Positions 6,261 to 51,092 of a stretch of 64,000 nt of DNA are shown here, piece after piece. Source of the DNA: Octopus vulgaris (taxonomy: Eukaryota). Position 1 is the first letter of the stretch; each line of letters opens with the position of its first letter. The DNA lies in the NCBI GenBank assembly GCA_951406725.2, contig OX597828.1, forward strand, positions 56,916,001 to 56,980,000, given 5' to 3'. The notes under the pieces are model-generated. The model did not search any database. It was not told where the DNA came from and saw only the letters and a program-made list of their open reading frames with translations. A program made the position numbers and the translations under genes.

Positions 6261-6309
6261 AAGTGTTAGTTTTCCCAAAAGGTTAAACATGATCGGACAC
6301 GCCGAAATT
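6261..6309 (-). promoter_or_regulatory. Conserved upstream motif of the CR unit (paralog 1)
   Basis: aagtgttagttttcccaaaaggttaaacatgatcggacacgccgaaatt; 43/49 identical to 28631-28679. Confidence 0.55.
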
Positions 6310-6588
6310 ATCTAGTATTGTTTGGTTAAACACAAAAACAATAATTAAACTTGTTGCTAACCACTGGCTGTTAATCAATTCATATTGAACGGTAGTTAGT
6401 TGTGAGCACGAGTCTTTATTTAAGATCTTAACTTTCACTTTTTTACTCGCTCACACTGCTGATTAAAAATTTCGCCTATTGTACTATTATAATGCTCAAC
6501 GTTTCACCTTCAGTATCAAAGTGACTGATACGTTGGGTGCATTCGATAAACAATATATATGTATGTATATATATATATATATATATAT

Positions 6589-6916
6589 TGATACGAGCAG
6601 GTCAGCTGGGAAGCAACTGCCTTGACCTACTTTGCTTGAGGTGGAGACTGGAAGTCTACAATGTAAAGTTAATGTCCTTTGTTCTGTCGATTCACGAAAG
6701 AGTGATGGCTTTTCGAAAGACCCCTGTCCTTTTGCCGGTCAGGGAAGGGTCAAGGAAACTACCCTATCAAAAAGGAGGAGGTGTGAGCCTGTAAGTTCAG
6801 TTCGGCCGGAGAAATTGAGGTGGTAACAAGGCAGATGCGATTACGAAGGAAGCGGTCAGTTGAGAAAGACAGACACACAATCATGAGAGATGACAGGCGA
6901 GATAGTGACAGTGACA
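6589..6916. mobile_element. Truncated LTR-like fragment related to the 53351-54459 solo LTR
   Basis: Shares ttgacctactttgcttg.ggtgga...aagtcta.aatg.aaagtta and aagagtgatggctttt with ~53380-53465. Confidence 0.55.
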
Positions 6917-9326
6917 TTCTTTGTTTTAATACTTGAAGATAACCATGGGTAGAACATTCATCTGCAGGGGGGAGCCACTCTGTAGTTTCTATTTCATTAG
7001 TTATATAGAATTAAATGTATATTTTCGAGCAATGCTATAACATGATAATACGATAACACACCATAAGTTTAGTCATAGCCTTTCCTGTTCTATAATATTG
7101 ATGTGCAGATACGTGTAGTACTGCATACCTAACTTTAGGATCCTGGCGTGCCCTCTAATGTTTTGTAGAGTTGTTGTTCTTTTTCTATTGCTCTCAATGA
7201 AATTTTAGCATACGGATTTGATTAATGGAAAAGCATTCAAGCAGTATCGTATGAGTGTATTATAAATGCGTTATATACCTACAGTTATATCCACAACTAC
7301 ATATGAACCTCTTCCCACTTCAGTAGCTTTCGAGTGTAATTTCGGTAGGAAACTCTGTGGCTGATAGTGCGGCTTCAGTTTATGACATTTACGTTGAATA
7401 TGATTCCGTTTCAAGCAGTTTCTAAATGATGAAGCAGATCTGTGTGAATCAAGTTATTCAATTAATGTAACATGCAAAAGCTATATTGCAGAAAAATTTT
7501 GTATACATCTGCGCTATAATATGCATATGTCTGTCGAATCGACTTGATTTAAAAGGAAGTATAAAATGGAATCGTTAGCGAAATATAGTAAAATACAGTG
7601 TTTATCGTTGAAATTACACCAGCTTAAATTATTGTTACATGCAACAATTTGTATGCATTTCGAAACAGAAGAAAGCACTGGAAGGCTTAATCTTTTGTAA
7701 GCTTCCAGGTACAATGCAGTGCAGACAACCAGAAAGGAAATGCATAGAGCTCGTCCTAGAATTAGTGGGTGATATTTTGAATGACTACTTATTGTAATTC
7801 TGCAGTAAATTCTTTGAAAATAATACTAAGTTATCAGGTGATGCTGACTGGTTTTAAATCTAGATAGGCCATATGCATTCTAAGACGGCTGATATTGAGA
7901 ATTGAAAATAAATGGATACAGAAAGCTGAATTTCACATATTATGAACTCCTCCTTTTTCTTTTCAGAAAGAGTTCGATGTATTGATGAAGAGTTCAACAG
8001 CATTGAAAGCTGTAGTTGGGAAGATATTAGCTGATATGATGGATTGCATACCATCTAAATATTGGAAAAGTTTGATCGGTATGTTAAGTATTAGCGCCGG
8101 CTATCAAAATGCTGACATTATGGCCGCTCTCCTCAGACATAACAGAATATGCTTCAACACACGAACTCACATAAAGAGTCTTGCAAACCAAATCGAAAAA
8201 TAAATATACGTCAAATTTAGCACAAAAAATTTACGTCAAATTTAGCCCAAATTTGAACTGTTGAAAAAAGTAAAAACAAGTAGTAAAAAAAATCAAACAA
8301 CGATGGTGATAATGAAAAAATATCATCTGTTGAAATATGTGATATATAAAAAGAAAAAAAATCTTTCTATATCTTAATATACAAATGTAAGAATTCTCTC
8401 TTTTGTTTTTATATATACAATTATACATCTTAAACTTCTAACAATGTATGTATATGTTTATACATTCTTATGTTCATGTAGATGTATGTATATGTGCAGA
8501 CACATTTGTATGTTTATATGCATGTTGGTATATGTGATCGTATATATGTATGTATGCATGTATGTGTATTTGCATGCATGTACTTGTGGGTATATATGTG
8601 GGTGTATATGTGTATGTGCATGTATGTATATATGTGTGTGTATATGTGTATATATATGTGTATATGTATGTGTGTGTATGTATATATATAGATATGTATT
8701 TATGTATGTATATCTATATCAAACATTGAATGCTAAAACCCACAGAGAGTGCCAAGATAAAAGTGGACACAAAAGTTTCTTTATTTTTATATTTTAGATT
8801 TTCTTTTATTTTTTCCCTTCCTTTCTTTCTTATATTCAGGGACATACAGTGCATGTATGTTTGAATGTTTATGAAAACAAGCACACATACAATAAGTTCC
8901 TCCATATATAAATATATATATATATAAATATATATATATATAGATATATAGATATATAGATATATAAATGTGCGTGTGTGTATTTGTATGTAAGGGTATA
9001 TGTGTGTGTGTGTACATAGCAACACTCCTACCATTGAAAAACAAACCCTCTTTTTCCTTCTCTCTTTCCATTTCTTACAAAGGTCATCTCAAAAGTACAA
9101 AAGGACACAAAAGGAAAGAAACGAAAAAGAGAAAAAAATGTTTTTAAAAACGCACCCTTATTCTCTTTCATTCAGGTTCTCCATCCCTCTATTTCCCTAT
9201 CGCTCCCCCTCTCTCTGTCTCTTTCACCTTCGCTCTCCCTATATTTCTCATTATATACACACACACTCTCTCTCTCTCTCCCCACTTCATTCACCCATAA
9301 TATAAACACAGGCATATATATATATG

Positions 9327-9364
<38 letters not shown>

Positions 9365-9371
9365 TATAGGG

Positions 9372-10443
9372 AATAAATATTAGGGAATAAATCCAAACTT
9401 ACAGGGGAAAATCAGATTTAGGATTGAATCCAATTTTATAGTAAAATATTATATTATACTAAATTAGAGACACAACCACTATTAGGCAAATCAAACAATG
9501 AAAGACTTAAGCCAATACATAAATTTAGTTCATTGTTTAAAACTCGCCAAGAAAAGTACGTATCTTTTAAGATCTTCAAATTGTTAATTTTTAATATTGT
9601 ATAAGCCTTAGGAGTAATAATATTCTCCTTATGTAAATATTGTTGTTTATGTAATGATCTAATTATCGTAATTTTCTATGTTATTAGATATTAAATAATT
9701 TAGATAAACTTTGATAAAATTAGATATGTTTCGACTAAAGATGGTCTAGGTCATGTCTAATTTAATAGGATAATTTATATTAGATAATTATTCCCATTCA
9801 TAATTATGTTTATAGTACTTATAGTATTTATTTAATACTATATTACTAAGAATGGAATATTTCTATAAGTATTTTACATAAGATTTCTAAAGTCAGTTTA
9901 AGTTAGTTTATTTGTATTTTGAAATTAGCTATTTCATCTTTAAATATGAAAAATTAAATATATTAGGTTTTCATTATATACAATTGTTTATAGAGATTAT
10001 TTTAGATCTTGATTATAAGATTTATATATATTTTCATTGATAATTTATATATATTAGTCATTTTAAATATCTATGTAATTAGATATAGACTAATATTGAT
10101 ATTAGAATATGGGTTTTCTACCTTATAAATTAAAGTTAATATTTAACATTATAGTCGATCTCGATATAATCATATTTAATAATAGAGTTTATTATAAGTA
10201 AATTATTATTTTAGATTATATATATTATTTATATCTTAAAAATATTGATTATATTTTAGATTTTGAAACCACCTGATGAATGTCTGCGACTCAAAAATTT
10301 GATGACAGAAGACAGGAAACGATCGTAGTGGATATTAATTATATTTTTTAATAATTGTTACACATTTAAATAATATAAATTAATTTATGTATTGGCTTAA
10401 GTCTTTCATTGTTTGATTTGCCTAATAGTGGTTTTGTCTCTAA

Positions 10444-10450
<7 letters not shown>
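9372..10450 (+). mobile_element. Penelope-like element remnant with inverted pseudo-LTR ends, set in (TA)n
   Basis: ~9457-9525 is the reverse complement of ~10383-10450; hammerhead motif just inside the right end; related end fragments at 11705-11858 and ~58545-58578. Confidence 0.6.
10269..10331 (+). ncRNA. Minimal type I hammerhead ribozyme motif (Penelope-like element associated)
   Basis: CCAC-CTGATGA-a-TGTCT...AGACA-g-GAAAC-GATC-GTA-GTGG: stem I CCAC/GTGG, intact core boxes, palindromic stem III ACGATCGT, GUA cleavage triplet. Confidence 0.7.
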
Positions 10451-10518
<68 letters not shown>

Positions 10519-11856
10519 GGGGAGAAAGAGAACGGGTGTGAAATAAAGAGTGTGAGGAAAAATAAAATAATAGTCCTATAAAATTTAAAAGTTTATTTTT
10601 TTAAATCGAAAACCGTCAGCTAAATTGTGAGTAGCAGATGGCAATGTCCTAAAAACTACCACCCTCAGCTTACAGAACGGCCTCAAGTCGGCTTCGGAAT
10701 TTCGCAGACAGTGCGACAGGTATCCTTCTCAAATACGCCCTACACATTATAATGCGTGTGATACAATCGGGGAAATAGGATGTCCAGAAATTTAGGCCGG
10801 TGAAGTAGTAGAGATTCCCGGACACATGATTTTTTCTGGAGGTCTATTAAAGAGCCGAATCCTCGTGTCACACATATGGGCTTTCAATAGCCACCATCTC
10901 ACCAGTAACAGTTTTGCTATAGACATCAGCAGCTTCATGTAGCCGTCGACTGAAAGCACACACAAAGGCGATCAAAATTTGCGAAACTTAATTTTCATGA
11001 TGACTAAGTCACGTCTTATAAACTTTGAATTGGTCACGAAGCATTGAGCAGCGGACATAATGTCAGCATTTTGATAGCCGGCGCTAATACTTAACATACC
11101 GTTCAAACTTTTCCAATATTTAAATGTTATGAATTCCATCATATCTGCTAATATCTTCTAATATCTTTCTATGCTGTTGAACTCTTCATCAATACATCTA
11201 ACTCTTTCTGAAAAGAGAAAGGAGGGGGTTATAACATGTGAAATGTAGCCCAAACACACTTTACGTTTCTATTTATTTTCAATTCTTACATCAGCCGACT
11301 TAGAATGCATATGGCCCATTTTGATTTAAAACCAATGAGCATCACCTGCTGACTTATTTTCAAAGACTTTACTGCAGAATTACAATAAGTAATCAGTTAA
11401 AATATCACCCACTAATTCTAGGACGAGTTCTATGCATTTCCTTTCTGGTTGTCTGCACTACAGTTACCTGGAAGCCTACATAAGAATAAGCCTTCTAGTG
11501 TTTCTGTTTCGAAATGCATCAAAATTGTTATATGTAACAATAATTAAACCTGGTGTAATTTCAATGATACACACTTTATTTTACTATTTTCGCTAACGAT
11601 TCCATTTTATTCTTCCTTTTAAACCAAGGCGCTTCAAAAGACATATGCAAATTATAGCATAGATGTATACAAATTTTTATATAAATTTTAATTTATATAA
11701 ATTATTTTATGTATTGACTTAAGTCTTTCTTTGTTTGATTTACATAATAGTGGTTTTGTCTCTAATATAATATAATATAATATTTTACTATAAAATTGGA
11801 TTCAATCCTAAATCTGATTTTTCCCTGTAAATTTGGATTTATTCCCTAATATTTAT

Positions 11857-11908
<52 letters not shown>

Positions 11909-15701: not shown

Positions 15702-15759
<58 letters not shown>

Positions 15760-15889: not shown

Positions 15890-17345
15890 GGCGAGGTTCT
15901 AATTATCAATATTCCACCATTGGCTGCATATCGTCCAACTCCCCCTCAACTCCCACTGGATCAATATCCCATCCAAATATTTTATTTAACCTGTTATACC
16001 TCTCTTTATCTATTGCATTCACATTTTCCGAGGAAATATCCGTAGGCAAGTAAACCCTTATTACGGATTTAAACTTCGGTATGTTTTTTTTTATATTCCC
16101 CTTCTCTTGCGCATCTTCAGCTTCCATGTTTGTTTGATTTTTTTTCTTTGCTCCACTCTTGGCGCCTTCCCTCGGTATTTATCCTCCTCCATATTAGTTA
16201 TAGTCACTGCTTCACTTTTGTGCTGTTGTCTCCTTACACCATCCAAATCTTCCTCCTCCGCTAGTGTAGCTAATACACTTGCTACTGCCACCTCTTTCAC
16301 AAGCCCCTCGTAAAGCTCCTTCTCCAACTGTTTTACAACCCCCTTCTCCACCTCCTTATCTCCTTTTTTTTCTTTTTCTGCCTCTGCGGCGGAGAGTTTA
16401 CTCTTTCTTTTCTTTTTCGTATTTTAACCACTATGAACGCTTCCTTTCTTATTACCGTCATTTCAAACCATCTTGTACCGCTTCGTCCACCTCTTGCTCT
16501 TCAGACTATTCCATCTGTTGTTCTTCCTCTCTGTCTGTGCATATCGTCTTAATGTGTCGGCCTTTTTCCCCACATTGATAACATATACGAGGCCTGCCCT
16601 CCACTACTATTCTCAGCCTCACATCCTCTGTTAAATCTATTTCCTCCAGAATTTCGTTAATATCTTTCAAAATCGCTTGTATGGCCATCTCTATGCTATA
16701 ACCCCACCAATATAACCATATGGTTCTCGTCACTTTCAGTATTTTCGCGTCATCCTCCATGTTGAATATTATCACTGCTACCACCCATGTTTCATTTATA
16801 TCCGGGGGTTCTTTTCCTACTCTCACCCTGGCCAAACGCTTGCCACAGTACGATGGCAAAAGTACCCATTCATCCGTCTTTTTGGCTACAGGGGATTACT
16901 GTATCGCTTCGTCTTCAGTCGCGAATCGCACATCGCACATCCACTATGCTATACGTTCTTCCTCTCGTGATGTATGTCGTGACCTTTTTAATTTCTTTCA
17001 AGCATTCTTTAACAACTTCGATATTTTCGATTTCGCTTTCCTATCTTCCCCTCACGAAGGTTCTACCTTCCCCTCACGAATCTGTAAAGCATCAGAATCC
17101 ACTCCAATGCCTGTTTCTGCCGCATAACTGTGGCTGGTACGTGTTCCATAACTCTCATAAATGGGAAGGAAACAATCACAGTTTAAAAATTTCGTATGCA
17201 AAGAACAGCAACAGTAATTTCAACAATTCAACAAATAGGTTCACCATTACGGGATACCTTCATCAGACAATTAACAATGCTACTCACGTCTAACAGGAAT
17301 CAAAAATGATTGAACAGAATAGAAAAAAAAACAGCGGCGAGTACT
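15890..17345 (-). mobile_element. Non-LTR retrotransposon (L1/Tx1-like) 5'UTR plus decayed ORF1, copy A
   Basis: Frameshifted ORF1 with zinc knuckle LRIVVEGRPRICYQCGEKGRHIKTIC; homologous along its length to copy B; no ORF2 seen. Confidence 0.7.
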
Positions 17346-18958
17346 AATTCTTTTATTAAGTACTTAGGCTCTTACGCAGGGGGGACAGCACAAGGGCAGT
17401 CAGAACACCAAAGTGGGGACAAAAGCATACAACGAATGAATAATGAGAAAAATGTTATATAAAAATGAAATGTCTGCCTGAGCAACACTATCATGCAGTA
17501 CAATTTGATTGTTTTTATGCACAGTTTATAATATTTTCTTTTTTTCCTTTGTCTTTGTTTCTATTATCATGGTTTTACTTGTTTTAATGTCTCCTAAATT
17601 GTTCCAGCTCTCTCTATTCAGCCACTGGTCACAGTTCGTGAAACTCCACCGCAACTCCCGGCGAATGAATCTCCCCTCTACACATTTCCTTTAACCTGTT
17701 ACATCTATCTTTATCAATTAAGATGGCCTTCACACTTTCCGGGTAAATATCATTAGACAACTTAAACTTTATAAAAGACTTGAACTGCTTTATCTTTCTT
17801 TCCCTTGCTGTGTCCTTAGTGTATATAACGAAATTCCAGCTGTGCATTTTCGCCTTTCGCACTTGTTTTCCTTTTCTCTGCCCCTCTCTTGACACCTTCC
17901 CTCTGTCCTTATCCTCCTCCATTTTGGTTATCATTGCTGTTTCTCTTTCATGCTGTTATCTTCTATACCGCCTAAAACTTCTTCTTTCTCCCCAGTTATA
18001 GCTATTCCCCTTCGTACTGTCTCCTGCTCCTCAGACTGTTTCATCTGCTTCTTCCCCCCTCTCTCTGGGGGCTACCCGCCTTCATATGACTATTTTCTCC
18101 ACACAGGCAGCACATGGGAGGTCCACCCTCCACCACCACTCTCAGCCTCACATCCTCGGGCAAAACCACCTCTCCGCAATCCTGTCCAGCTAACTTAAAC
18201 CTGCCTGCACGGCAATCTCTATTCCATAACCCCAACAATTCAACTCTCTGGTCCTCGTCACTCTCAGCACTCTTGTATTCTCCCCCATGTTGAACATCAT
18301 CGCTGCCACCAACCATGTTTCATTTATTTCTGGTGGCACCTATCCCACTCCAATCCCAGCAACACGCTTGCCACAGTATGTTGGCAAATGTACTCATTCC
18401 GCCGTTTTTATGGCTTCAGTGGAGAGCGTCATCGTTTTGTTCGTCGCGAATCACACCTCCTCAGCGCTATACTTCCTTCCTTGTGAGATAAAGGTGGTGA
18501 ATCTTTTAATTTCTTTCAAGCACTCCTCAATATCTTCAACGATTGCTATTTCCATTTCCTTGGATGACACCTTCAGTGTATTAATTATAATAGTTCTTTC
18601 TGTCACACCGTTCGTTAGTTCCAATGGTGGCGTCAGTTTCAAAGTATTGCCTTCCTTTTTCAACAAATTTTCACACTCTTTCAGCTTCCTCAGTTCCACC
18701 TTCACCTCACGAACCTCCAAAGCTTCAGAGTCCACTCTGGCCCTTTGCTGGTACTTTTTCCATCTCCCCCATAAATGGAACTAAAACAAACACAATTCAA
18801 CAATATCGTATGCAAACAACAGTAACAGTCATTTCAACAATGAATAATTCTAGGTACAGCCACGAAGGGAGACCTTCAACAAATAATTAACAATGTGACT
18901 CACGTCTAACGGGGATCAAAATGAAGAAACGGAAAAGAAAAGGAGCGGTGACTACTCA
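17346..18958 (-). mobile_element. L1/Tx1-like 5'UTR, decayed ORF1 and 3' tail, copy B (head-to-tail with copy A)
   Basis: LRVVVEGGPPMCCLCGENSHMKAG knuckle; shared 5' block attaacaatg..actcacgtctaac.gg.atcaaaa; A-rich 3' end near 17350 on the minus strand. Confidence 0.7.
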
Positions 18959-21146: not shown

Positions 21147-21649
21147 TCAATTATAAATTATTAATCATTTTATAACTGCCGCGTAAATAATGGCATTCTT
21201 AGTTCTTCTTACTCTGTGCATGAATATATACGTTATCATAAGAACATTTGGAAATGTCACTTATCAAATTACAAGGAGCATATGTGTCCACCTTGCCTGG
21301 GAGCTAGCGTAATAGAACGGGCGTATTCTATATTACAGCTACTGATATGCGATTCCATGTAAAATTAGGCACATGAAAGAGTATAAAGCATAAGAAGGAA
21401 CAGTGAAAAGCGAGTAGAGAAGTGGAATTCAAGGAAAGTTTTCAGAAGAGGTAAATGACAGAACCGATAGAAACGTTATTCAGAATAAAGAGGACAAATT
21501 GAATTATAATAAAACACATAGACAAATTGAGAAGTTTTGTCAGCACATAAATTTGAAACAACACACTAAAACAGTAGATAGACTTACTAAAACATTAGAT
21601 ATATGCGTGGTCACATGTTTAAAACACATTCTCATTAAATATCAATTTC

Positions 21650-23275
21650 TTTTAAATTTCAATATTTGCGTGATGCGTGCTGTAGCAAAAATACCGAATG
21701 TATGAAACATATAAGTGTCTCAACGTATTGCAAATTCAAATAAGAAAGAATAAACGAAACGCTGATCAACATGATCGTAGTACATTTTCAGTTCAAATGT
21801 CACCAGCATCAGCTTATTAATTGTCTACTCACACCTTTAAAATATTTCGTAGATAAACGATTGTTTTGGTATTCTTCGGGGTAAAACAGATATTCTTTGT
21901 AAATCAAGAATATGAAATAATGTCTTATGATCTATTTTCTCAACAATTTCAACAAGCAGTAATCGCATATTATGCAGTTTTGTACAAAGTGCATATGAAA
22001 TGCATTTAAACAATTTAAAACACGATGGGCATCACTGATGCCTGGTTTCCAAATATGTAAGATATTGTGCCTTCTCAAAACAAACATATATTCATTAATG
22101 TTGTCGAAATAAGCAAATTCATAACAGCTCAAAGCTTAGAGCTGTGTTCGTTTAATTCGTTGACCTCTAATTCTTTTAAATTCATTCTTTTTACTTCATT
22201 GTTATATTCTCTTTCTTTCTGTTTTATTTTGGTTTTAAGGATATGAACTGCAATTTATTTTAAGTCGTATATAGTTTTAAAATACGACAGATGAGCACTT
22301 TCTGATAATACTATATACAATTCTCATTGAGAAGTACCAAGTAAAACTTAATCTGCAAAGCGTAAGCTTATATATATATATGAATGTTATCGTATATGAT
22401 CAGGAATTTCAAATGTCTGTAGCATTTTAGATGACCTTCGAATCTGTGAGATAATGTGTATGGTCTGCCTGCGTATGTAAAAGGTACGAAATTATTCGTT
22501 CTGAACCTTAATTCCCTTAATTACGTGTTCTTATGTCTCTTCCAGACTGTTGCAAACGTTTCCCCTTTGTTTCCTATGACTCTCCCTTTCTCTCTATGCA
22601 CAAGCCAATACATAATATGTTTGAAGCATAAGCCTTAAATGTTTTGAAGATCGAATATAAATTTAACACTTGCAAACCATGAATAAATCTATATATATAA
22701 AACTGTAGTTGTGTGAGTGTCTGTCCCCTTCGATTTAGATTCCTAACTACTCCCACATTTTGCGGTGCAGTTTAACCAAATTCGGGTATCTTATAGTCGT
22801 GATTCATATCGAGCCCGTCTGAGTATTAGCGTGCGTCTACGATGAGTCTACGATTTTAAAAATAATTTAAGATCATTTTTTATTCCATTTTAATGCATAA
22901 TTTTTCGTGTGTCGATGGCGGCGGAGTTGGCGTCCACGCTCAAACACCTGCACCTGTGTTTGCTTCTCCCCCTTCTTCCCTCCCTCGTGAAGCTGTGGGG
23001 GAGGGAGTGTAAGGAAATCAACGTCGTAAAGCGTTGTCAAGGAGACCAGCGTTCTTTTAGAACAACGACTTCATGGCTTGAAGACACCAAAACAGAAATG
23101 GCTAAGAAAGCCCGAATTGGCATCTATAAGGGAAGTAACTCACTAAAAATGCTTATATAGTTATTTCCCTTACAAACCCGAGCAACGCCGGGCGATACTG
23201 CTAGTACTACATAAAAAACATATATTGTAATTGGTAATTATATTCTTTTCTTATGGACACTCCGACAATTTCCAT
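21650..23275 (-). pseudogene. CDS-less remnant of a fifth CR repeat unit (downstream and upstream flanks fused)
   Basis: 21650-22380 aligns with the downstream flanks of paralogs 2 (~25800-26535) and 3 (~37760-38405). 22380-22687 and 23205-23275 align with the upstream flank of paralog 2 (28180-28683). No coding sequence lies between them. Confidence 0.8.
22688..23204 (+). mobile_element. Non-autonomous Helitron (517 bp)
   Basis: Inserted between A and T; 5' TC, 3' CTAG; subterminal GC hairpin cccgagcaacgccggg (23177-23192); no TSD; interrupts the ghost unit's upstream flank. Confidence 0.85.
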
Positions 23276-23313
23276 TTTCATATATATATACATACATAAA
23301 TACATACATATAC

Positions 23314-23375
<62 letters not shown>

Positions 23376-24179
23376 CAAACGTTAATAATTTTGATATTTG
23401 CTAACAAAATGAACAATTGGTGTTTTCAGTTGTGTATATTTTTGTTTGTTTTGTCTTCTCATGTGCCGTCTGATCAGAAAGGAAGATGTATTTGAGGAGA
23501 TGACACGGATGGAATGGTTAAAACTCGTTATCGACAAATCTGCATGGAACATGCTGCTCATACTGATCTTGAAAAGAGTAGAATTAGGAAACATGCAGCG
23601 ATGCAAATTGGTTTCCTACATGGTCTCACCCACGTGGAGGACCGCTCGTTGGGAAAGCATGTTTCTTGAATATTCCTTTCCCCTTTAGATAGAAAACACC
23701 GAAAAAAATTATATCATGATGAAAATGTCAGAGAATGTTACATACGTGAAAACATTATTCAAACTAAGAAAAATATTAGAATGCATAAAAGGCAGTAAAT
23801 AGAGGCTTAAACAAATCCCGTGTCGTTCAGAAGAAAAAGGAGAAGCAAACACAGATAAGTAAAATACTAAGAAGAAAGAGAAAAGGCTTAATACAACGCC
23901 AAAAGAATCCAGAATACCTTCCAGCAAATGTGGGGAAAGTGCATTTGGACGAAAAATCTGGGAAAAGTACATCAAAGGAAAGTGCATTCTATATATGTTT
24001 TAACTGGAGAATTTTGTATTCAGCCATTCTTTGGAACAATCTCATCCTCTGATCTGTGCATTACTTTCAGGTATACAGTATACATAAGAAGAAATCAAAT
24101 GAACATTCATTTCATTTCTGTCACGAAAAATAATAGCAAAACATGCAGTGACCTGCGAATCGTTTCATTGTAGAGAAGT

Positions 24180-26703: not shown

Positions 26704-27876
26704 TTATTGTGAACTTTCTTCATCTTTGTCAGTATTAATTGCTGACAAAGCAATTATGATAAAGAAAATGAGAAATATGACAATTATTGACAAAAATATT
26801 TTGTCTAGTTTCTGAGACGTTAGAAAATGTTTTTTATACGCAGTTTTCGCCTTTATCTTCATATTGTGCTCATCTGATATTTCTGAAACGCCAACACTGT
26901 TTCTTGATCTATTTGTTTCTTTTGCAAATTCTGGAGTTGAGTTATTGTTCGATCCAGTCTGGTGGGCATGCACTTTACATATAATTACTGACCCGACAGT
27001 AGAACAACCGCTGACAAATGTCAAAATTAAGAGATATATTAGATATGCAGATGGTTCCTCAGAATTATAACCCAATATTTTTTCAGTTTCAGAAAGAAAA
27101 ACGATGTTTGTAAGAAAAACAGTGATTGCAAGTGAAATTTTCTCTCCAGAGTCAGCCGGTAGCAAATGGACAGAAAAGATCAAAAATGTTAACATAATTG
27201 GGGGTATAATTTTTGTTACTGTTGCACTGTTAAGTCTTCTCTTACCATGAACTTTAAGGCCCACTGCTGTAGTATTCGTCCTTCCGATGTCAATCTCCTC
27301 AAACTTGAAATTCCATTGTTTTAATTTGGATTTGCATTCTATAGTGTACTCAAAACCGTTTATAGTTTCCTCCATATGCATCACATGCGCAAAGCAAACC
27401 AATATATCACATTCGTGCTCATCAAAAGGATATTTCTCAACGTTAATCCTGCAGTAAGATTTGAATATTTCGTTTATATACAAGTGAATGTATCCGGCAG
27501 AATTTATAGTGACTGCCATGGTCGGATCCATACGAAATCTACCCAATACGCTATTACATATTTGAATATTAGGGTACCATATGTTTCCTAATTCAACATT
27601 TATGAGACTTTTCCCGTATGTTGATTCATCCCACTTGAGATTAGTGTCGCGCCATTTTATGCCGAGTATTAAATTACTTGCCAGTACACCTTGCTTGATG
27701 TCTAATTCAATAATGTTCTCTACAGAAAGTGAAACATTTACATGTACTAAGCCATCTTCCTTATTAGCCGGTTTCTTTGTTTTATCGTAATTACTGAATA
27801 TCTCTTTTTCTAAAGGTTTATTTTGTGAAGAAGCACTTGCAAAGGAAATAAATATTAAGTCAATTATCAATTTCAT
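26704..27876 (-). CDS. Chemotactile receptor-like Cys-loop channel subunit, paralog 2, 390 aa from the signal-peptide Met (in-frame upstream ATG at 27975 also possible)
   Basis: MKLIIDLIFISFASAS aligns with the paralog starts; Cys-loop CRINVEKYPFDEHEC; SGEKISLAITVFLTNIVFLSETEK; M1-M4. Confidence 0.93.
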   Translation of the reverse strand: MKLIIDLIFISFASASSQNKPLEKEIFSNYDKTKKPANKEDGLVHVNVSLSVENIIELDIKQGVLASNLILGIKWRDTNLKWDESTYGKSLINVELGNIWYPNIQICNSVLGRFRMDPTMAVTINSAGYIHLYINEIFKSYCRINVEKYPFDEHECDILVCFAHVMHMEETINGFEYTIECKSKLKQWNFKFEEIDIGRTNTTAVGLKVHGKRRLNSATVTKIIPPIMLTFLIFSVHLLPADSGEKISLAITVFLTNIVFLSETEKILGYNSEEPSAYLIYLLILTFVSGCSTVGSVIICKVHAHQTGSNNNSTPEFAKETNRSRNSVGVSEISDEHNMKIKAKTAYKKHFLTSQKLDKIFLSIIVIFLIFFIIIALSAINTDKDEESSQ

Positions 27877-28630
27877 GATGATCAATTTAAAGGCAATATT
27901 GGGTTTTATTATTATTTTTCTCAGTATATTTAAATCTGTGCAAGTATTGCGTATTTCTATATATTTTTTCTGCATGTTTAAAACATATAGGAAATCGTTT
28001 TATGAAAAGTGTCCTAATAATAGAGATGATATAAGTTACGTATATACTGTCAATCTATTTTCTGTTCAAATTAATACACAAACGTCTAAAAAGAGTTCCA
28101 ATTACTTCGCGTTTCATAGGATTGTCTGTGTTTATGTAATGCAAACAAACGAAGATCATATAATTCAGCTTGGCTTATCATGAACGTCATCATATATCAT
28201 CAGGTCTTCAAATGTCTTTACTATTTTGGATCGTTTTTGGATCTATGTATTAGTGAAGATGGTCTGCATATATGTGTAGGTGTGCAGTAGGAAGTAGGAA
28301 ATTATTCGTTCTAACGAATAGAGATTTTTTGGGCCTCATCCCCACTGCTATTCATGTCTTTTACTTTCGTGTCTCTCTCTTCCGTTTTTGACCATGGGCC
28401 ATTATATAATATTTTGAAGCACAGACTTTAAATGATCTGAAGATCGAATATGCATTTAACGCTTGAAAACTACAATTATATGTTGCAAAAGATATTTTCA
28501 CTTAGTTATTGATAATACATCAAAAGAAAATATTTTGTTAGTAATTTAATGTATTATTAAAAATACATTAAATAGATTGATGTAAGTAACTTTATTCTTT
28601 TGTTATACGTAGTGTGTTGTTTCAGGCGTC

Positions 28631-28679
28631 AAGTGTTAGTTTTCCCATAAGGTTAAACGTAAATGGACACTCCGAAATT
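28631..28679 (-). promoter_or_regulatory. Conserved upstream motif of the CR unit (paralog 2)
   Basis: aagtgttagttttcccataaggttaaacgtaaatggacactccgaaatt. Confidence 0.55.
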
Positions 28680-31243: not shown

Positions 31244-32232
31244 ATAGGCCATTCAACCCACTAGAAAGAGCAGCTAAACTCAAACCGCTAAATAGTTGTA
31301 ATTCAGAAACCAAAGGAAAATAAAAACATTTACCCTTATCATCTTTGGACTATGCATAGTTTCGACATATATATTGGCAAACCGATTTAATTAAATTAAA
31401 TTAAATCTATTTGCCACTGGCGTGTCTCGTCAGCAAAGAAGCCAGGGAAATATATATCCACGATGCGACAGCATCGACGCCTCCAGGATATATATTCTAA
31501 ATTTTCAAAATCTACCGTCACCGCGCCAACTTATCAGCAGCAAATATAAACTGCTGATTTAATTTCAGAATTAGCCAAAAAATCATTAATTAATCAATAT
31601 CAGGGTAGCAAAAAATTCAAGAGAAATTTTTCGCCACCAGCGTTCCAGTGAGAAAGAAAAAATAGTCAACAGACTATATAATATACATTCAACAATATTA
31701 AGAAATGGCCTTGATAGGCCATTCAAAACACTAGAAAGAGCAGCTAAACTCAAACCGCTAAATAGTTGTAATTCAGAAACCAAAGGAAAATAAAAACATT
31801 TACCCTTATCATCTTTGGACTATGCATAGTTTCGACGGTAGATTTCGAAAATTTAGAATATATATTCTCGAGGCGTTGATGCTGTCGCATCGTGGATATA
31901 TATATTCCCTGGCTTCTTTGCTGACGAGACAGGCCAGTGGCAAATAGATTTAATTTAATTTAATTAAATCGGTTTGCCAATATGTATATCGAAACTATCA
32001 TCCAAAGATGATAAGGGTAAATGTTTTTATTTTCCTTTGGTTTCTGAATTACAACTATTTAGCGGGTTGAGTTTAGCTGCTCTTTCTAGTGGGTTGAATG
32101 GCCTATCAAGGCCATTCCTTAATATTGTTGAATGTATATTATATAGTCTGTTGACTATTTTTTCTTTCTCACTGGACAGCTGATGGCGAAAAATTTCTCT
32201 TGAATAACTTTTTGCTACCTTGATATTGATTA

Positions 32233-32234
<2 letters not shown>
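31244..32234. repeat. Rearranged foldback structure: B-C-spacer-A-B followed by the reverse complement of A-B-C
   Basis: B at 31244-31366 and 31714-31836 (direct); C 31367-31516; A 31589-31713; 31837-32234 is rc(A-B-C); TA-rich repeats on both sides. Confidence 0.9.
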
Positions 32235-32293
<59 letters not shown>

Positions 32294-35663: not shown

Positions 35664-38595
35664 ATAGTACTCCATTTATTACATATTCATTTTTACAGTC
35701 ATTCCAACAGTTTTAGAGTAATTCCCGCAGTTCATATAAGTGACAATGTAGAGGGTAACCTCATTATTGTTAGTGGTGATACATTCATATTTATAATGCG
35801 ATAGATCGAATTCCCTGATTTATTTTGTAAAGTATAGTAATTATTATGTGTATCAGATGAGAAGTGGTCCTTCAATATCGGTACGGTTGCATATATTATA
35901 CATTTGCGAATCTGTGAAGGATCTAAGCTGATAAAATTGCATCTTCTGCCACAGCTATGAAACGTATCTCAAACTGTTAAATATGTAGTTCGTAGTATAT
36001 TACTTCACATGCGAAAATCAGAAAAAAACATCTTGAAAAATAGCTGTGCTTAGAAAGAATGAAATTTCACTGTTTATTCTCATGTTGAAAGTTATGTATG
36101 CCAACAGGAGCCTCGTTATACAAAGGAAGTTGTTAAAAAGGATATATTTTGGATTCCTAAGCAAGGAAAATAAAACCGCAATATAAATAATAAGCATACA
36201 TTGGTTACGATTACATTTCTGTCATAGTTGCATGTATGTAAGCACAGGAAAATGTTCAAACGATGAAATGATATACACACCACCTCGTAAAATTTCATGA
36301 CAAATGGCTGATGAAGCAATGCTTACTCCTAAAATATCAATGAAATTTTATTCATGCAGAAAAGACTTTCAAAAGTTATTAAGGCAGCAAATAATCCTCA
36401 ATAATCTCAAAGCAAAAGCGATGTAGAAATATACAAACCCATAAATATTATGCATTTCATATAAAATGGAATTTAAAAGTCATTTTTAGAAAATGCAAAG
36501 ATATGTAACTGAATTTTAAAAATGTGTGTACGTGTTCTTTTATTCTTTTACAGTCATGTGATTGCAGCCATCCTGGAGCACACCTTAAACTGTTTTAGCC
36601 GAGGAAATCTAATATTTCTTCTATCGCCTCTTCTGCTGAATCGTTGTTACGAGAACATAAACACATCAGCATCTGTTATCAAGTGAAGACGGGTGGACAA
36701 ATAAAGACACACACACACACACACACACATCAATATGAGACCCCCTGTGTCTCGTTGGAGATTTTCTTTCTCCGTCTTCCCTTCCTTGGACCTTTCATAA
36801 GGAGATGATATGCAGCTAAATCTTTAAGAAGCCGGTGGGAAAAGTGTCCGATATAGTGTAAATAAATACAGTTGTGTCTGCATGGATAAGGGATTTACCG
36901 TACTTTTACTGTCTCTGAACAAGTCTACCCCTAACAAATCTTCAACAATAGAAATGTGTTCAAGCTATGTTCAACTGGTGTGTGTTCCCATTTCAGGAAT
37001 ACAGAATATAATCTACAGAATAATTTCCACGGTTGATAGTGCTGACCTAGTATTAAATTTATTCATATTCAGAGAAGTTGCTTTGTATTGGAAGTGCCTA
37101 TGTATGCAAGCACGGAAATACGCTGGCATGGGTTAGTAGGGTTGTGAGTTATTTGTCAGCGAGTTTGATTCATTTATGTTTCTGTGTCAGCGAAACTTGG
37201 ATATGAGTTAGTGAAACGAGGCGAGTGTGATGTAAAAGGTAAAGGAAGAAAGATTTGGATTGTACGACCAAAATGTAAATGTATGTGGATGTAGTGAGTG
37301 AGACAATATTGTATGGAATCATCCCCATAAAAACTAATCGGAAACAATGAAATAATGGTGTTAGATACGTGGGAGAAAAGATTTTAGAGAAGAATATGGA
37401 AAAGAATAGTTACAGTGCAACAGTGGTACGAAGATAATATTATGAGAGATAATAGAGTCTGTAAAGTGCATAGAGTTGTTTGAACTGAAAACAGTAACAT
37501 GAAAACAGTAGCATGAAAAAGATAATGAAAGAAAAGTTAACAATGCAGCTAATGTAGAGAGAATGGTAGTAATTTAATATACTTATTACAGTAAAATCAA
37601 TTTCAATAAGACATTAATATTACCATTTTTTTAACTTTATGTGAGAAGAAATTCAAAAGCAGCACAATAAATCATGATATACATAAATATACATAAATAA
37701 GTATGCGTATACACATACATATCCATAACTAAAACGGCACCCAATAATACATCAAAATTGTTGCTTTATGTGTGCAATAGCAAAAATATCGAAAGTATAA
37801 ATCGTAGAAAAGGATGCTTCAACGTTTTGCGAAGGACAAGCAATAGAACAAAGTATAATTAAAATGCTGTTAAATATGATCGCATTACTTTCTCAGTTCC
37901 AATACCATGAGTATCATGTTAACATTCATCTATCTGTCTTTCAAAAGAGAATTCCTGTGTAAATTTGCGATTAGAATGTAGTGTCTTAAATTCCATTTTC
38001 TCAGCAATTTCTAAAACTATTAATTGTATAGAATGTACACAAATGGACAGTTCCAAGTACCAGTTTTACACAAAGAACATATGCAATGAATTTAAAGCAC
38101 AATGCATTTCACTATTTATATATCTGCATTTGGAAATATATAATATTTGTGCCTTCACAAAAGAAGCAGGTATTTCTATACGTTCTCGAGAAAAGTAATT
38201 GTGATAAAATCAAATGACAGCGTTGCGTATCTTTAACGTGGTTTCCTTTTTCTTTCTCTTTATATTTTCATTTTCATTCTCTATATTATGATTTCATTCT
38301 ATGCATGGTATATATTTCAAAAGAGTAGTTGAAAGATGATGTGAAAATTATCTTTATAAAACTCATTCGGAAGTTTTACAGAAAGCTCAGTAAACAATGC
38401 GGAGATTGCGTCGTTTTCAGTCATTCAGAGGCGAAATATAGAATTAATGGCATCCGTTGTGGTTTAATATTTGTTGTTTCCTATCATTTCTAAGGTTTCT
38501 AATTTTTGATACTGAAAATATTATTATTTTAGTTACTATTTCAAAGCTTTTCGTACACACTGAAAGTAATGGTAGTTTCATTTTTTTTACTACTA

Positions 38596-39741
38596 CTACG
38601 AAGATGTCGACAAGGAAATAATGATAAAGAGTAGTAGAAATATAACAATTATTGACAAAATTATTTGGTCCAGTTTCTTATAGCTTAATAAATGCTTTAT
38701 ACAAGGCTTTATAGCTTTTATTTTAATATTTTGTTCATCTGAAATTTCTGAGACACCAACTCTATTTCTTTTTCCGTTTGATTCTTGTGTAATTTCGGGA
38801 GCGGAATTGGTGTTGGCTCCAGTCTGGTTCGCGTACAGTTTACACACAATTACCGCGGAAATAGAAGAACATCCACTGACAAGTGTCAGAATTAAGAGAT
38901 ATATTAGATATATAGATGCTTCACGAGAATTATTACCCAATGTTTTTTCAGTTTCAGAAAGGAAAACGATATTTGTAAGAAAAACAGTGATTGCAACAGA
39001 AACTTTTTCTCCAGATTCAGGTGGTAGTAAATGGACAGAAATGATCAAAAAAGTTAACATTATTGGAGGTATAATTTTTGTTACTGTTGCACTGCTAACT
39101 TTTCTCTTGCCGTGAAGTATAAGACCAACTGCTACAATATTATCATTTTCCACATCAGATGTTTCAAAATCAAAGTCCCATTGACTAGATTCAGATTGGA
39201 GTTTTATGTCGTAATCAAAAGCACCCACTGTTTCTTCCACATACAACTGATGCGCAAAGCAAACAGATATATCACACACGTGCTCATCAAAAGGATATTT
39301 TTCAACGTTAATCTTGCAGTAAGTTTCGAATATTTTGTCTATATATAAGTGAACGTCTCCGTTCCTATTTATTGTTACTTCTTTGTTCTCATCAAAACTA
39401 AATTTACCTGTTACACTATTACATATTTGTACGTTAGGATACCATACATCACTTAATTTGGCATTTATGTACCCTATATTATATTGTGTATCAGTCCATT
39501 TCAGATTAACGTCGTTCCATTCGAAGCCGAGTATAAGATTACTTGCGAGTGCACCTTTTAGAATATCTAATTCTATAATTTTCTTTAGCGTAAGTGATAC
39601 ATTTGCGTATATGATGTCGTCATCGGATTCAACAGGTCTCTTTGTTTTATCGTACTTGTTAAATAACATCTTTCGGAGCGCGCTTTTCTGGGACGAAATG
39701 CTTCCAATTAGCGTAAAAATTAAGATGACTATTAATTTCAT
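38596..39741 (-). CDS. Chemotactile receptor-like Cys-loop channel subunit, paralog 3, 381 aa
   Basis: Signal peptide MKLIVILIFTLIGSISS; WYPNVQICN; Cys-loop CKINVEKYPFDEHVC; SGEKVSVAITVFL; four TM segments. Confidence 0.94.
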   Translation of the reverse strand: MKLIVILIFTLIGSISSQKSALRKMLFNKYDKTKRPVESDDDIIYANVSLTLKKIIELDILKGALASNLILGFEWNDVNLKWTDTQYNIGYINAKLSDVWYPNVQICNSVTGKFSFDENKEVTINRNGDVHLYIDKIFETYCKINVEKYPFDEHVCDISVCFAHQLYVEETVGAFDYDIKLQSESSQWDFDFETSDVENDNIVAVGLILHGKRKVSSATVTKIIPPIMLTFLIISVHLLPPESGEKVSVAITVFLTNIVFLSETEKTLGNNSREASIYLIYLLILTLVSGCSSISAVIVCKLYANQTGANTNSAPEITQESNGKRNRVGVSEISDEQNIKIKAIKPCIKHLLSYKKLDQIILSIIVIFLLLFIIISLSTSS

Positions 39742-40460
39742 GTTTATATTGATTAAATGAAAATATTCCCTTTTATTTTGTGCTCAGTGTCTGAAGCTTG
39801 ATTATATATCAGATAGTTAGAAATATTTCATGTATATACGAAACACATCAGGGAATTTGATGGGTAATTTCTTTCTTTTTTTTTTGTTTTTGCTATTATA
39901 CTCGTTAAAGTAATTTATGATGCATGAGGTGTTCAAAACGATTGCTCCACAAATCTAAATAAGAACATTTAAAGTGAATCAGTTCGAAATACCTTACGTT
40001 GCAGTCTATATTTTAAAAATATAAATAAAAATATGTTTTTATAATTCAGCATACCGTGCCATGAATGCTGGTCTTCGCGTACAAGTAGCCGTGTAGATCA
40101 TCTCCGTATCAGTGTAGGTGTGAAGAGAAAAATGACGCCTGTTCAACATGAACGCCCTTAAATAAGTCATGCGGTTTCTCTACGACTGTCGTCTTCTCAT
40201 TTTTCTTGCTACCCTTCCCTTCTTTATGTGTATATCTACTTATGTATTTGTTTCAAGCACAAACATGTCAAATGTTTTAAAGTTCGAGTACATATTGGAA
40301 AACACTGCAATTACTCGATGTAACAGATGATTACACTTATCTATTTATAATTCATAACACGTAAAGTCAAATCTTATGTATGTAATGTGAGTTTTTGTGA
40401 TATAGTTGTCCATCCTATCCGTTTAGTGATACATCATCATGTACCGTTTAAAACAGCCTG

Positions 40461-40492
40461 CCCACATTGTTAAACGTGAACAGGCACGCCGA
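40461..40492 (-). promoter_or_regulatory. Conserved upstream motif, partial (paralog 3)
   Basis: cccacattgttaaacgtgaacaggcacgccga, 24/32 identical to the paralog 2 motif. Confidence 0.45.
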
Positions 40493-40842
40493 TGTCTTCT
40501 AGTCATATATGGTTAGATATAAGAATAATTACTCACTTTATTGATAAATATTTAACGTCATATATTGAACAGCAGAAGCTATCAGGGAGGTGTCGTTCGC
40601 ATCTTGTTTTCTTATTCCGTGTTTTGTTCGATCCCACGGCTAAAATATATGGGTCAGCCTGCGACTATACTCATGGGTTGAGTGACACGTTGGGAGTGGG
40701 TTTCCAGTGCATTTAAACAAAATAACGCTGGGCGTCTATCAATCTATCTATCAATCTATCTATCTATCTCTCTATCCATCTAGTTATCTATCTGCCTGCC
40801 TATTTGTCTGTCTATCTATCGATCTATTTATCTACTATTTAT

Positions 40843-41016: not shown

Positions 41017-41017
<1 letters not shown>

Positions 41018-43360: not shown

Positions 43361-43368
43361 GTCACAAT

Positions 43369-45038: not shown

Positions 45039-45129
45039 TTTGTGTTTGTATGTGTGTGTGCAAGAAAAAACATTAGATACTTATCTTGTATATATGACAT
45101 AGTTCGATATTGGGGCATATTTCTTTTTG

Positions 45130-47918: not shown

Positions 47919-47931
47919 TGATCTCTATGTA

Positions 47932-48004
<73 letters not shown>

Positions 48005-48416: not shown

Positions 48417-48504
<88 letters not shown>

Positions 48505-48995
48505 TCTGTGTGTGCGCGCATGTGTATGTAAAACAGTAGAAGTGTGCTTCAGTATGCCCACCTTTCATCACACTAGGTAAAAACATTTCGTTAATTCTGG
48601 AAAATTAGTGGTTTTATAATGCATGCGTGTAAAAAGCGATTGTAAAATTTTTGTGTTAGTACAGAATTAAACGCAACTGTTATTGTTAATGATGTAAATT
48701 GTGTATATTATCAAAGGATTTCTAAATGCAGAAACACACTTGTTATTAAAATTGCTAACCGTGAAGAAGAGTGTAATTTGCAATGTCGGAGCATTTTAGA
48801 TGGATAAAATGACAGCGAAACCCTCAGGGATTCGCTACATGATGTTCATAATTACTCCACTTTGGTGAGAATCTGCTTTGCTTGTCATCCAATATAATCC
48901 TCTTTTCCCTGGATACCTTTTACGCTAGGTATTTTTTAAAAACATTACATATTGTCTGACATTCATGAGAAATGTGCAAAATTTTCTTTTGCTCG

Positions 48996-50147
48996 TTATT
49001 TCTCAGAAGAGGCTGATAAAGCAATTATAATATAGAGTAGTAAGAATATAATAATTAGTAAGAAAAATATTTTATCAAGTTTCTGGTGGCTTAGAAAATA
49101 TGTCTTAAAATAATTATTAGATTTTGTTTTTACAGTTTGCTCATTTGCACATTCTATAATCCCAATTTTATTCTTCGAATAGCTTGATTTTTGTGTTATT
49201 TCTGGTGATGATTCTATGTTGGTACCCCTCGGATGTGCATAGAGTTTAGATATAGCAACTGAAACGACAGTAGAGACTCCGCTCACAAATGTCAGAATCA
49301 GGAGATATATTAGATACATAGATGCTTCACGAGACTTATTACCCAATATTTTCTCAGTTTCAGAAAGAAATACAATATTTGCAAGGAACACGGTAATTGC
49401 AACTGAAACCTTTTCTCCAGATTCAGGTGGTAAAAAATGAACAGAGAGTATCAATATTGTTAGCATTACTGGGGGTATTATTTTTGTTATTGTGGCGCTA
49501 GTAACTTTTCTTTTGGCGTGAGCTACAACACCAGCCGCTACGCTGGGCTTTCTTTTACGTTCACTCAATTCCAACCTAAAATCCCATTGACTGGATGTGG
49601 ATTCTAACTGCGCAAAATGATTAAATTCACTGATAGCTGCAACCATAAATATTTGGTGATTGAAACAAACTGAAATATCACATTCGTGTTCATCAAAGGG
49701 ATATTTATTAACATTAATCCGGCAATAAGTTTGGAAATTTCTGTTTATAAACAAGAAAACGTTTCCGCCAGGTTCCAAAAAGATTTCTGTGTCCTCGTCA
49801 ATTTTGAATCTATCCATTACGCCGTTACACATGTTTATGGTAGGGTGCCATATATATTTTAGTGCAAAACTTATGTAACTAATATTGTTTACCGATTCGT
49901 CCCACTGAAGATTCATATCGTTCCATTGTAGTCCGAAAATCAAATCACTTGTTGCTACACCATTCAATATGTCAAATTCAATTATGTTTTTTATCACAAG
50001 TGTTACATTTACTAATACAATATCATGATCGTTATCAACAGGTTTCTTCGTTTTATCATAATTTCTTAATAATTTGTATTTCAAGGCGTCCTTTTCCGAG
50101 GCATCGCTTCCGATTAACACAAAAATTAAGACAATTAGCAATTGCAT
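48996..50147 (-). CDS. Chemotactile receptor-like Cys-loop channel subunit, paralog 4, 383 aa
   Basis: Signal peptide MQLLIVLIFVLIGSDA; WHPTINMCN; Cys-loop CRINVNKYPFDEHEC; SGEKVSVAITVFL; four TM segments. Confidence 0.94.
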   Translation of the reverse strand: MQLLIVLIFVLIGSDASEKDALKYKLLRNYDKTKKPVDNDHDIVLVNVTLVIKNIIEFDILNGVATSDLIFGLQWNDMNLQWDESVNNISYISFALKYIWHPTINMCNGVMDRFKIDEDTEIFLEPGGNVFLFINRNFQTYCRINVNKYPFDEHECDISVCFNHQIFMVAAISEFNHFAQLESTSSQWDFRLELSERKRKPSVAAGVVAHAKRKVTSATITKIIPPVMLTILILSVHFLPPESGEKVSVAITVFLANIVFLSETEKILGNKSREASMYLIYLLILTFVSGVSTVVSVAISKLYAHPRGTNIESSPEITQKSSYSKNKIGIIECANEQTVKTKSNNYFKTYFLSHQKLDKIFFLLIIIFLLLYIIIALSASSEK

Positions 50148-50760
50148 TGCGATTAATCTATGGAATATTTATCCTATATCCTTTTTTGCGAATGCTTGAC
50201 CTTTGAATAGATATCGTGATTTTGAAATATTTCCTCAAATTATGGATGTGAATAAAATTCGATTAAGAAATTGAAATAATAGTATATATATATATATATA
50301 TATACATGTGTGTAGATACAACTGTATGAAAATATTTCAAAATACCTCGTGATTCCTTTATGCTGTGAGTATGAAATGCACACACATTATTTAACTTGTT
50401 AGCATTTGGTACCATGAAAGATTTTGAGTATCAGTTGGTCATGAGGCCTAAGACGCAATGGCATACGATGAAGTGATACTTTTTGTAAATGTTTATCTCT
50501 TTAATTATAGTCTCTTATACTACCGAAATTTTATCACTAACTCTCTATAAATGATTCATCTTCTTCCCACGTTTCTTTCTTCTCTCTCGTTCTCATTGTA
50601 TGTGTGTGTCTCTCTCTCTATGTGCAAAGATATATATAATGGAAACTACAGTTCAGTTCCACTATATATAGGCTATTTTCTGATTTCTCGATATTATTAA
50701 TACAAAATATGTATATATCTGTGTATATATGGTTACACACATGCACACACACACACACAA

Positions 50761-50808
<48 letters not shown>

Positions 50809-50813
50809 GTGTT

Positions 50814-50856
<43 letters not shown>

Positions 50857-50920
50857 ATGTATATATATATATGTGTGTGTGTGTGTGTATGGGTATATAT
50901 TATACTTATATATATTTGCG

Positions 50921-50976
<56 letters not shown>

Positions 50977-51071
50977 TATATATGCATACACACATACACA
51001 CAAACATATATAAAGTAAATTTGCCACGTTCTGTCTAATATATAAGACACTATTTGGTAAATAATGAAATT

Positions 51072-51092
51072 AAGTGTTAGATTTCCCATAAG
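51072..51092 (-). promoter_or_regulatory. Conserved upstream motif, partial (paralog 4)
   Basis: aagtgttagatttcccataag, 20/21 identical to the paralog 2 motif. Confidence 0.45.

Follow-up and report, generated by a model that had tools for sequence, protein, structure and literature searches.

RESULTS

Four octopus receptor genes share an upstream block

The analyzed stretch of DNA, further referred to as the window, comprises 64,000 nucleotides of the Octopus vulgaris contig OX597828.1 (assembly GCA_951406725.2, positions 56,916,001 to 56,980,000 of the forward strand), and the positions given here are counted from its first letter. The window is AT-rich animal DNA (GC content 0.34), and its minus strand carries a tandem array of four chemotactile receptor (CR) genes, each with an intronless coding sequence in a single open reading frame (ORF). 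It also contains a ghost unit, in which the flanks of a receptor gene are preserved and the whole coding region is missing (Table 1). Upstream of each of these five units lies all or part of a block of about 50 bases, which in the four genes is located 647–925 bases before the start codon, and which probably functions as a regulatory element.

Judged by their sequences and arrangement, the four genes are members of the cephalopod CR family, because they are nearer to CRT1 than to nicotinic acetylcholine receptors (nAChRs), have the Cys loop, are intronless and stand in tandem. Pfam ligand-binding and membrane domains of Cys-loop channels were found in all four paralogs, and paralog 3 matched CRT1 (1e-51), squid CRB1 (1e-28), and the best solved nAChR (7e-26). 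The Cys loop is present in each paralog and the CC pair in none; the absence of the vicinal cysteines is a feature of cephalopod CRs. The paralogs are 96–100% identical to O. sinensis proteins. In a tree of 25 rows, which contained the 19 hits apart from the two of the window itself, together with four cluster members, every paralog paired with its own O. bimaculoides protein; therefore, the duplications are older than the split from that species. Among the four, paralog 4 is the most remote (amino acid identity 0.49–0.55), and it is placed outside the other three with moderate support (84/83, unstarred). At fourfold-degenerate sites the pairwise identity among paralogs is 0.52–0.69.

Two further observations concern individual genes. 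The short form of paralog 2 was adopted as the form present in the protein collection; an in-frame upstream ATG (27877–27975) would put 33 more residues before the signal peptide, and only the short form was matched in that collection. Paralog 1 (4466–5614; P0001–P0004) has near-identical recent duplicates elsewhere, with the differences concentrated in the N-terminal extracellular part.

Table 1. Positions of the receptor genes, the ghost unit, the copies of the upstream block and the candidate core promoter elements in the window
Feature	Position	Strand	Remarks
Paralog 1	4466..5614	-	single ORF, CR family, 382 amino acids
Paralog 2	26704..27876	-	single ORF, 390 amino acids; start taken as ATG at 27876
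Paralog 3	38596..39741	-	single ORF, 381 amino acids
Paralog 4	48996..50147	-	single ORF, 383 amino acids
Ghost unit	21621..23567	-	3′ and upstream flanks homologous to paralog 2, joined at ~22380; whole coding region missing
Full block (both modules), paralog 1	6259..6309		includes TYAAGTG word at 6259
Full block, paralog 2	28629..28679
Distal half of block, paralog 3	40461..40497		proximal half diverged
Proximal half of block, paralog 4	51070..51095		distal half diverged
Distal remnant of block, ghost unit	23253..23272		~60 bases with proximal module deleted
TATA-like word TATTTAAA, paralog 1	6027..6034	-	candidate core promoter, 420 bases before ATG
TATA-like word TATTTAAG, paralog 3	40157..40164	-	candidate, 423 bases before ATG
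TATA-like word TAATTAAA, paralog 4	50500..50507	-	candidate, 360 bases before ATG
TATA-like word TAATTAAG, ghost unit	22516..22523	-	homologous place
Initiator-like word, paralog 3	40129..40135	-	31 bases after TATA-like word; putative
Initiator-like word, paralog 4	50470..50476	-	33 bases after TATA-like word; putative
Paralog 3 leader under RNA-like contigs	39742..40140	-	run X9, one contig to 40091; run X1, 39902–40140; run X15, 39833–40018

Within the window the block is confined to receptor units and consists of two modules

The original prediction described the block at 6261 and 28631, with partial copies at 40461 and 51072, together with a half copy at 23255. The data confirmed these sites, the identity of 43/49 between paralogs 1 and 2, and the distances to the start codons, which are 647, 755, 707 (or 720 if counted from the partial match), and 925 bases for paralogs 1–4. 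All five copies have the same orientation and are located upstream of a unit. A 22-base pattern, with up to three mismatches allowed, matched three places in the window and none in 100 shuffles. A weight matrix made from the first two paralogs placed the copies of paralogs 3 and 4 next in the whole window (17.9 and 11.0 bits), ahead of the next best place at 9.7 bits, and no further copies were found within the 64 kb outside receptor units.

This distribution bears on the possible origin of the block as a piece of a transposable element or of some other dispersed repeat. The window does contain dispersed repeats, in both orientations, but the copies of the block within it lie only upstream of receptor units and point one way. 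Where the paralog 3 copy lies, a DNA run from a related organism had only the depth of a single contig (4.6) at 80% likeness in the corresponding bin, while simple repeats drew many contigs, although this result is weak, since contigs show presence only and the paralog 3 copy is diverged. Judged by its distribution within the window, a repeat origin is very improbable. An exact 21-base pattern was also found at two loci in metagenome contigs, with no receptor gene and no notable match in their flanks, and these matches were taken as chance.

The proposal that one motif is common to every unit was not borne out, because the block consists of two modules. The proximal, gene-side 24 bases are alike in paralogs 1, 2, and 4 (23, 21, and 22 of 24), and agree with paralog 3 at only 10–11 positions. 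The distal 25 bases are alike in paralogs 1, 2, and 3 (20, 18, and 17 of 25), are partly retained in the ghost, and agree with paralog 4 at 6/25 without gaps, where a shift by one base aligns a short GTGT core. Across the whole block paralogs 3 and 4, each with one half, share only 16/49 positions. It was also considered whether, in paralogs 3 and 4, an inverted copy of the remaining half had taken the place of the other, and this idea failed a test at the DNA level, in which 62/300 and 118/300 shuffles were equally good.

The ghost unit lost ~1.65 kb relative to paralog 2 (28180 to 26535), including the coding region and parts of both untranslated regions (UTRs), and tblastn detected no coding remnant in it. 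Its half copy of the block, noted in the original prediction, is indeed present, but it is uninformative, since the ghost and paralog 2 reach 42/49 elsewhere too. The loss of the proximal module by deletion from a unit that has no coding region, although a single case, was counted in favor of a promoter role. The upstream flank of the ghost also contains a 500-base insertion (22701–23197), single in the window, whose ends we take to resemble those of Lep1-type non-autonomous Helitrons.

The proximal module is conserved beyond its flanks in three paralogs

The conservation of the block was compared with that of its flanks by permutation in 10 upstream alignments, with 20 window tests in total. 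In the alignment of paralogs 1, 2, and 4 the best 24-column window coincided with the block, with 21/24 columns identical against a flank rate of 0.33, and none of 3000 permutations reached this value. The block was also a significant peak in the pair 1–2 (43/49, P = 0.0013) and in the pair 2–4 (22/24, P = 0.007), while the results were marginal for the pair 1–4 (P = 0.04–0.08), paralog 2 and the ghost (P = 0.06), and the trio 1–2–3 (P = 0.018 and 0.13). In the 3′ flanks, used as a control with the same three-way measure, the peaks in four trios reached 12–15/24, and the three-way identity of paralogs 1, 2, and 4 at fourfold-degenerate codon sites was 21/51. Paralog 4 keeps the proximal module although it is the most distant paralog. 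In these comparisons the case for conservation is strongest for the proximal module, which all three of these paralogs retain. The remark that the surrounding DNA barely aligns was largely fair, because the flank identity is 0.49–0.57, as compared with 0.46–0.51 in 12 non-homologous pairs.

Other alignable blocks were observed in the flanks of the receptor genes. A second conserved block lies ~300 bases upstream of the ATG (5828–5916, 28087–28174, and 40004–40055), with 36/49 identity between paralogs 1 and 2 at 5840/28099; it contains a TATA-like run in paralogs 1 and 3, and its paralog 3 copy falls within the contig-covered leader described below. Another block is located between the motif and the TATA-like word (28398–28470, 22604–22677, and 40240–40355), with 82% identity between paralog 2 and the ghost; it can be aligned in paralog 3 and is absent from paralog 1. 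In the 3′ flanks, paralogs 2 and 3 share blocks at 26069–26183/37982–38096 and 25886/37841 (39/49 and 36/49). Those of paralog 3 lie under an RNA-like contig, and they are possibly 3′ UTR elements.

The proximal module contains several candidate factor sites

The word TYAAGTG is exact in the proximal modules of paralogs 1, 2, and 4 (TTAAGTG, TCAAGTG, and TTAAGTG), with Y as the only varying position. It is absent from paralog 3 and the ghost, and it has 20 matches in the window, where a match is not binding. In the available text of a preprint it is given as the Tinman/NK2 consensus (10.1101/2023.06.28.546941). A search of the literature for NK2 in suckers gave nothing usable. The word GGGAAAWCTA is present in all three copies, which account for three of its five matches in the window. 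We take it to be a Rel/Dorsal-like word, and we likewise assume that AAGTGTTA, which overlaps TYAAGTG, is T-box-like. The exact COE word (TCCCNNGGGA) had no match in the window, and the forkhead word, with 262 matches there, was uninformative.

The original prediction had also pointed to a CSL/Su(H) site. As described, only paralogs 2 and 4 have TATGGGAA on the gene strand, and it agrees with the CSL word YRTGRGAA, as given in the accessible part of PMC6071610. This word, which has 12 matches in the window, is likewise restricted to these two paralogs, since paralog 1 reads TTTGGGAA and paralog 3 reads TGTGGGCA. Hence, the guess fits two of the four copies, while paralog 3, which is present in the RNA-like runs, lacks the site, and the NK2-type and Rel-like words fit three of the four. 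A literature search for YRTGDGAD returned nothing. Because the candidate words overlap and are common, none of them is established.

A TATA-like word and an unspliced leader lie downstream of the block

A TAWTTAAR word, absent from the original prediction, was found, after a purine-rich run, in homologous columns of the five-way alignment in four of the five units (paralogs 1, 3, and 4, and the ghost). It is separated from the block by 227 bases in paralog 1 and 284 in paralog 3, and the homologous place in paralog 2 lies at ~298. The distances of 565 bases in paralog 4 and 732 in the ghost include a microsatellite and the 500-base insertion. A second TATA-like run at about −300 reads TATATAAA in paralog 1 and TATAAAAA in paralog 3, and it is poor in paralogs 2 and 4. 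In paralog 3 this run falls within a stretch covered by two contigs, and it could possibly mark a second transcription start.

The transcript evidence comes from contigs of three small sequencing runs (one from each of three studies), which were taken as RNA by guess, with no tissue given, and which cover paralog 3 only. Of the 24 runs listed, four were aligned to paralog 3; none of the runs matching 38400–40600 is recorded as RNA, and 14 small ones were guessed to be RNA. One contig (X9) is continuous from beyond 37400 across the paralog 3 coding region to 40091, and no splice joint was found in the three RNA-like runs over this paralog, where contigs show presence and not absence. If the runs are RNA, they show that the paralog 3 leader is unspliced over at least 350–400 bases; the contigs do not map its start. 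The contigs end at 40018 (with 23 further unaligned letters), 40091, and 40140, the last of which is the end of the X1 contig, seven bases from the predicted start, and the block at 40461–40497 is uncovered. These ends were not counted as evidence, because they differ among themselves, the DNA run has a hole at 40101–40380, and the filters drop records. In X18, a DNA run from another organism, a contig departs at 40381 with 325 unlike letters, a possible sign that this region, between the motif and the TATA-like word, has been rearranged or has taken up an insertion.

These data bear on the proposals that the block is a core promoter, or the start of a long or spliced 5′ leader, with transcription beginning in it or ~50 bases after it. 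Several features agree with such a role. In paralogs 1 and 4 the block is succeeded by an AT-rich, TATA-like run, and the ghost and paralogs 1 and 2 retain the segment ATAAxAAAAGxATA after it. Paralog 2 has no downstream TATA-like word, assembled contigs often stop short of 5′ ends, and the upstream homology peaks of mouse V1R genes include start sites, according to the accessible portion of the report (PMC1955453). On the other hand, among the loose ends listed for paralog 3 in the three RNA-like runs none points upstream, no conserved donor or acceptor was seen by eye in the alignment, and a leader starting from the block would contain 14–16 upstream ATGs in paralogs 2–4. The first-exon reading is therefore left unsupported by the continuous and jointless leader of paralog 3, and the core-promoter reading is weakened by the presence of a TATA-like word further downstream, at a homologous place, in four of the five units. 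We regard these roles as unlikely, though still worth serious consideration.

The copies of the block do not share an RNA fold

The alternative that the block acts as RNA, either as a conserved hairpin or through CTAAC as the branch point of an upstream intron, was considered, because paralogs 1, 2, and 4 have CTAAC on the gene strand, and because, compared with shuffled sequences, the half copies in paralogs 3 and 4 show better folding (z = −2.8 and −2.4). However, the two best-conserved copies, in paralogs 1 and 2, fold no better than shuffles (z ~0), and those of paralogs 3 and 4 form hairpins (40449–40485 and 51071–51113, gene strand) with different centers. The copies thus have no fold in common. 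An Rfam scan of the window gave no matches, and no pyrimidine tract with a conserved AG was seen by eye after CTAAC. Hence, a function of the block as RNA is highly improbable. The paralog 3 hairpin has a 13-pair stem, in which all three mismatches are G–U, and as DNA palindromes the hairpins of the half copies were not above chance.

Other repeated sequences in the window

Apart from the receptor units, a diverged direct duplication (67–74%) with a strong strand skew and overlapping ORFs is located between paralog 1 and the ghost (15910–18941), and it probably represents the remains of a retroelement. Inverted and direct dispersed repeats of 250–650 bases, with 86–98% identity, were found at 7493–8128 and 11050–11678, and at 31244–32290.

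DISCUSSION

The block is likely, in our moderately confident assessment, to be a proximal promoter module older than the split between the vulgaris group and O. bimaculoides, and not a first exon. Of the original proposals, a shared cis-element, here taken as conserved and passed on with each duplicated unit, is the best reading, with the excess of conservation being measurable in the proximal half.

Several observations weigh against this interpretation. The permutation test presumes even rates along the flank, which makes its P values optimistic. In the pairs 1–3, 2–3, and 3–4, and in the four-way alignment, the block was not significantly above other flank windows (permutation P = 0.13–0.95), no run of bases is common to all four genes, and the best four-way windows lie elsewhere (P = 0.13–0.15). 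The distal half did not exceed other flank blocks in the pairs with paralog 3 (P = 0.33–0.95); it appears to be conserved only as well as those blocks, and these tests do not support its constraint. The block was therefore better conserved than its flanks in paralogs 1, 2, and 4 as regards the proximal 24 bases, and in paralogs 1 and 2 overall, but not in the comparisons with paralog 3. In a neutral simulation the best window reached at least 43/49 in 2–5% of runs at an identity of 0.65, which is the value at fourfold sites, and in 15–33% at 0.70; hence, 43/49 alone is modest evidence. Regarding the core promoter, paralog 2, which holds the best block, has no TATA-like word. The TATA and initiator patterns were tuned after the sequence had been seen, and a looser standard pair occurs 16 times on the two strands of the window. 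The predicted leaders carry 6–9 upstream ATGs in paralogs 2–4. Finally, the factor cannot be named from the sequence, since three short overlapping consensus words fit the same 24 bases.

Some of these observations could be explained if the block were functionless, being either the part of an old duplicated flank that has decayed most slowly or a short tract of gene conversion. Besides the outcome of the neutral simulation, this explanation is consistent with the collinear flanks of paralogs 1–3, which contain several alignable blocks, and with the fact that two of the four genes each lack one half. Gene conversion between paralog promoters has been proposed for some V1R subfamilies, as stated in part of the text of PMC1955453. 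However, residual flank does not explain well why conservation should peak together in three paralogs over one 24-base stretch (21/24), when the flanks are near the floor of the aligner, and conversion would need two events between sequences just 50–57% alike. Such an origin is consequently quite unlikely.

If the block is a proximal promoter module, its history could be envisaged as follows. The founding unit would have carried a two-part module before the duplications, and tandem duplications would have copied it together with ~1 kb of flank. Selection may then have retained the factor sites in a decaying flank. The proximal module would have disappeared from paralog 3 and the distal one from paralog 4, and the proximal part of the ghost would have been lost along with, or after, its coding region. 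The block would act as a cluster of transcription factor sites ~230–300 bases upstream of the predicted TATA-type core promoter, and transcription starting ~30 bases after the TATA-like word would give an unspliced leader of 330–400 bases. The bound factors may include an NK2-type homeodomain protein and a factor reading GGGAA, either Rel-like or CSL. In a speculative and doubtful extension of this model, the composite of NK2 and GGGAA-factor sites would be a selector code of chemotactile cells, which gave a promoterless retrocopy its expression in suckers and was copied across the cluster, and the loss of halves in single paralogs would set which subunits share a cell, and hence the heteropentamers.

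The arrangement resembles that of the clustered protocadherin genes of vertebrates, in which one short conserved sequence element (CSE) lies upstream of the start codon of each tandem paralog. The CSE binds CTCF and serves enhancer looping, while the octopus block has, by eye, no resemblance to the CTCF consensus. The promoter homology peaks of mouse V1R genes are similar in that intronless coding sequences of tandem chemoreceptor paralogs share an island of upstream non-coding homology within a subfamily (Stewart and Lane 2007; PMC1955453, in the portion accessible). Those peaks, as described in that portion, are 500–1000 bases long, stand kilobases upstream, with introns in between, and include the start site, whereas the octopus block has 50 bases, lies less than 1 kb from the ATG before an unspliced leader, and is predicted to be upstream of the start site. 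Short shared motifs, including O/E-like ones, for which binding of sensory neuron factors has been proposed, are also common to mouse odorant receptor (OR) and V1R promoters, according to the excerpted text of Michaloski et al. (2011; PMC3247230). ORs and V1Rs are chosen singly, however, whereas CRs form homo- and heteropentamers (PMC11526382), and the octopus window is without the exact COE word. Octopus CRT1 (PDB 8eis, 9e6b) and the 26-gene O. bimaculoides cluster (PMC9068888) represent the same family and the same tandem arrangement as the four genes; the available portions of this literature describe proteins, cluster, and expression, and not upstream elements. No CR upstream element was described in the literature searched, a scope outside of which were the primary receptor papers (van Giesen 2020; Kang 2023; Allard 2023) and their supplements, and a term search of the accessible text of 10.1101/2025.03.03.641191 found no mention of a promoter or upstream sequence. 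The kind of element, which is probably regulatory, appears ordinary for chemoreceptor arrays, and what seems new is the gene family, for which we found none described.

CRs are intronless and are considered to derive from retroduplication, which usually strips regulatory DNA (PMC11526382). A 2026 preprint states, in its accessible part, that before the elements it defined by an assay for transposase-accessible chromatin (ATAC) no functional promoters had been identified in cephalopods, and it reports Minos transgenesis with labeled sucker cells (10.64898/2026.09.23.753964), while the excerpt of another describes the use of a joint ATAC and expression kit on O. bimaculoides sucker nuclei (10.1101/2025.10.28.685082). 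The block provides exact coordinates and a prediction of split modules, which can be checked with the existing sucker ATAC data and cephalopod transgenesis, and it could yield a driver for chemotactile cells. If its regulatory role is true, the block would be the first handle on the regulation of the octopus touch-taste receptors in the sensory cells of the suckers.

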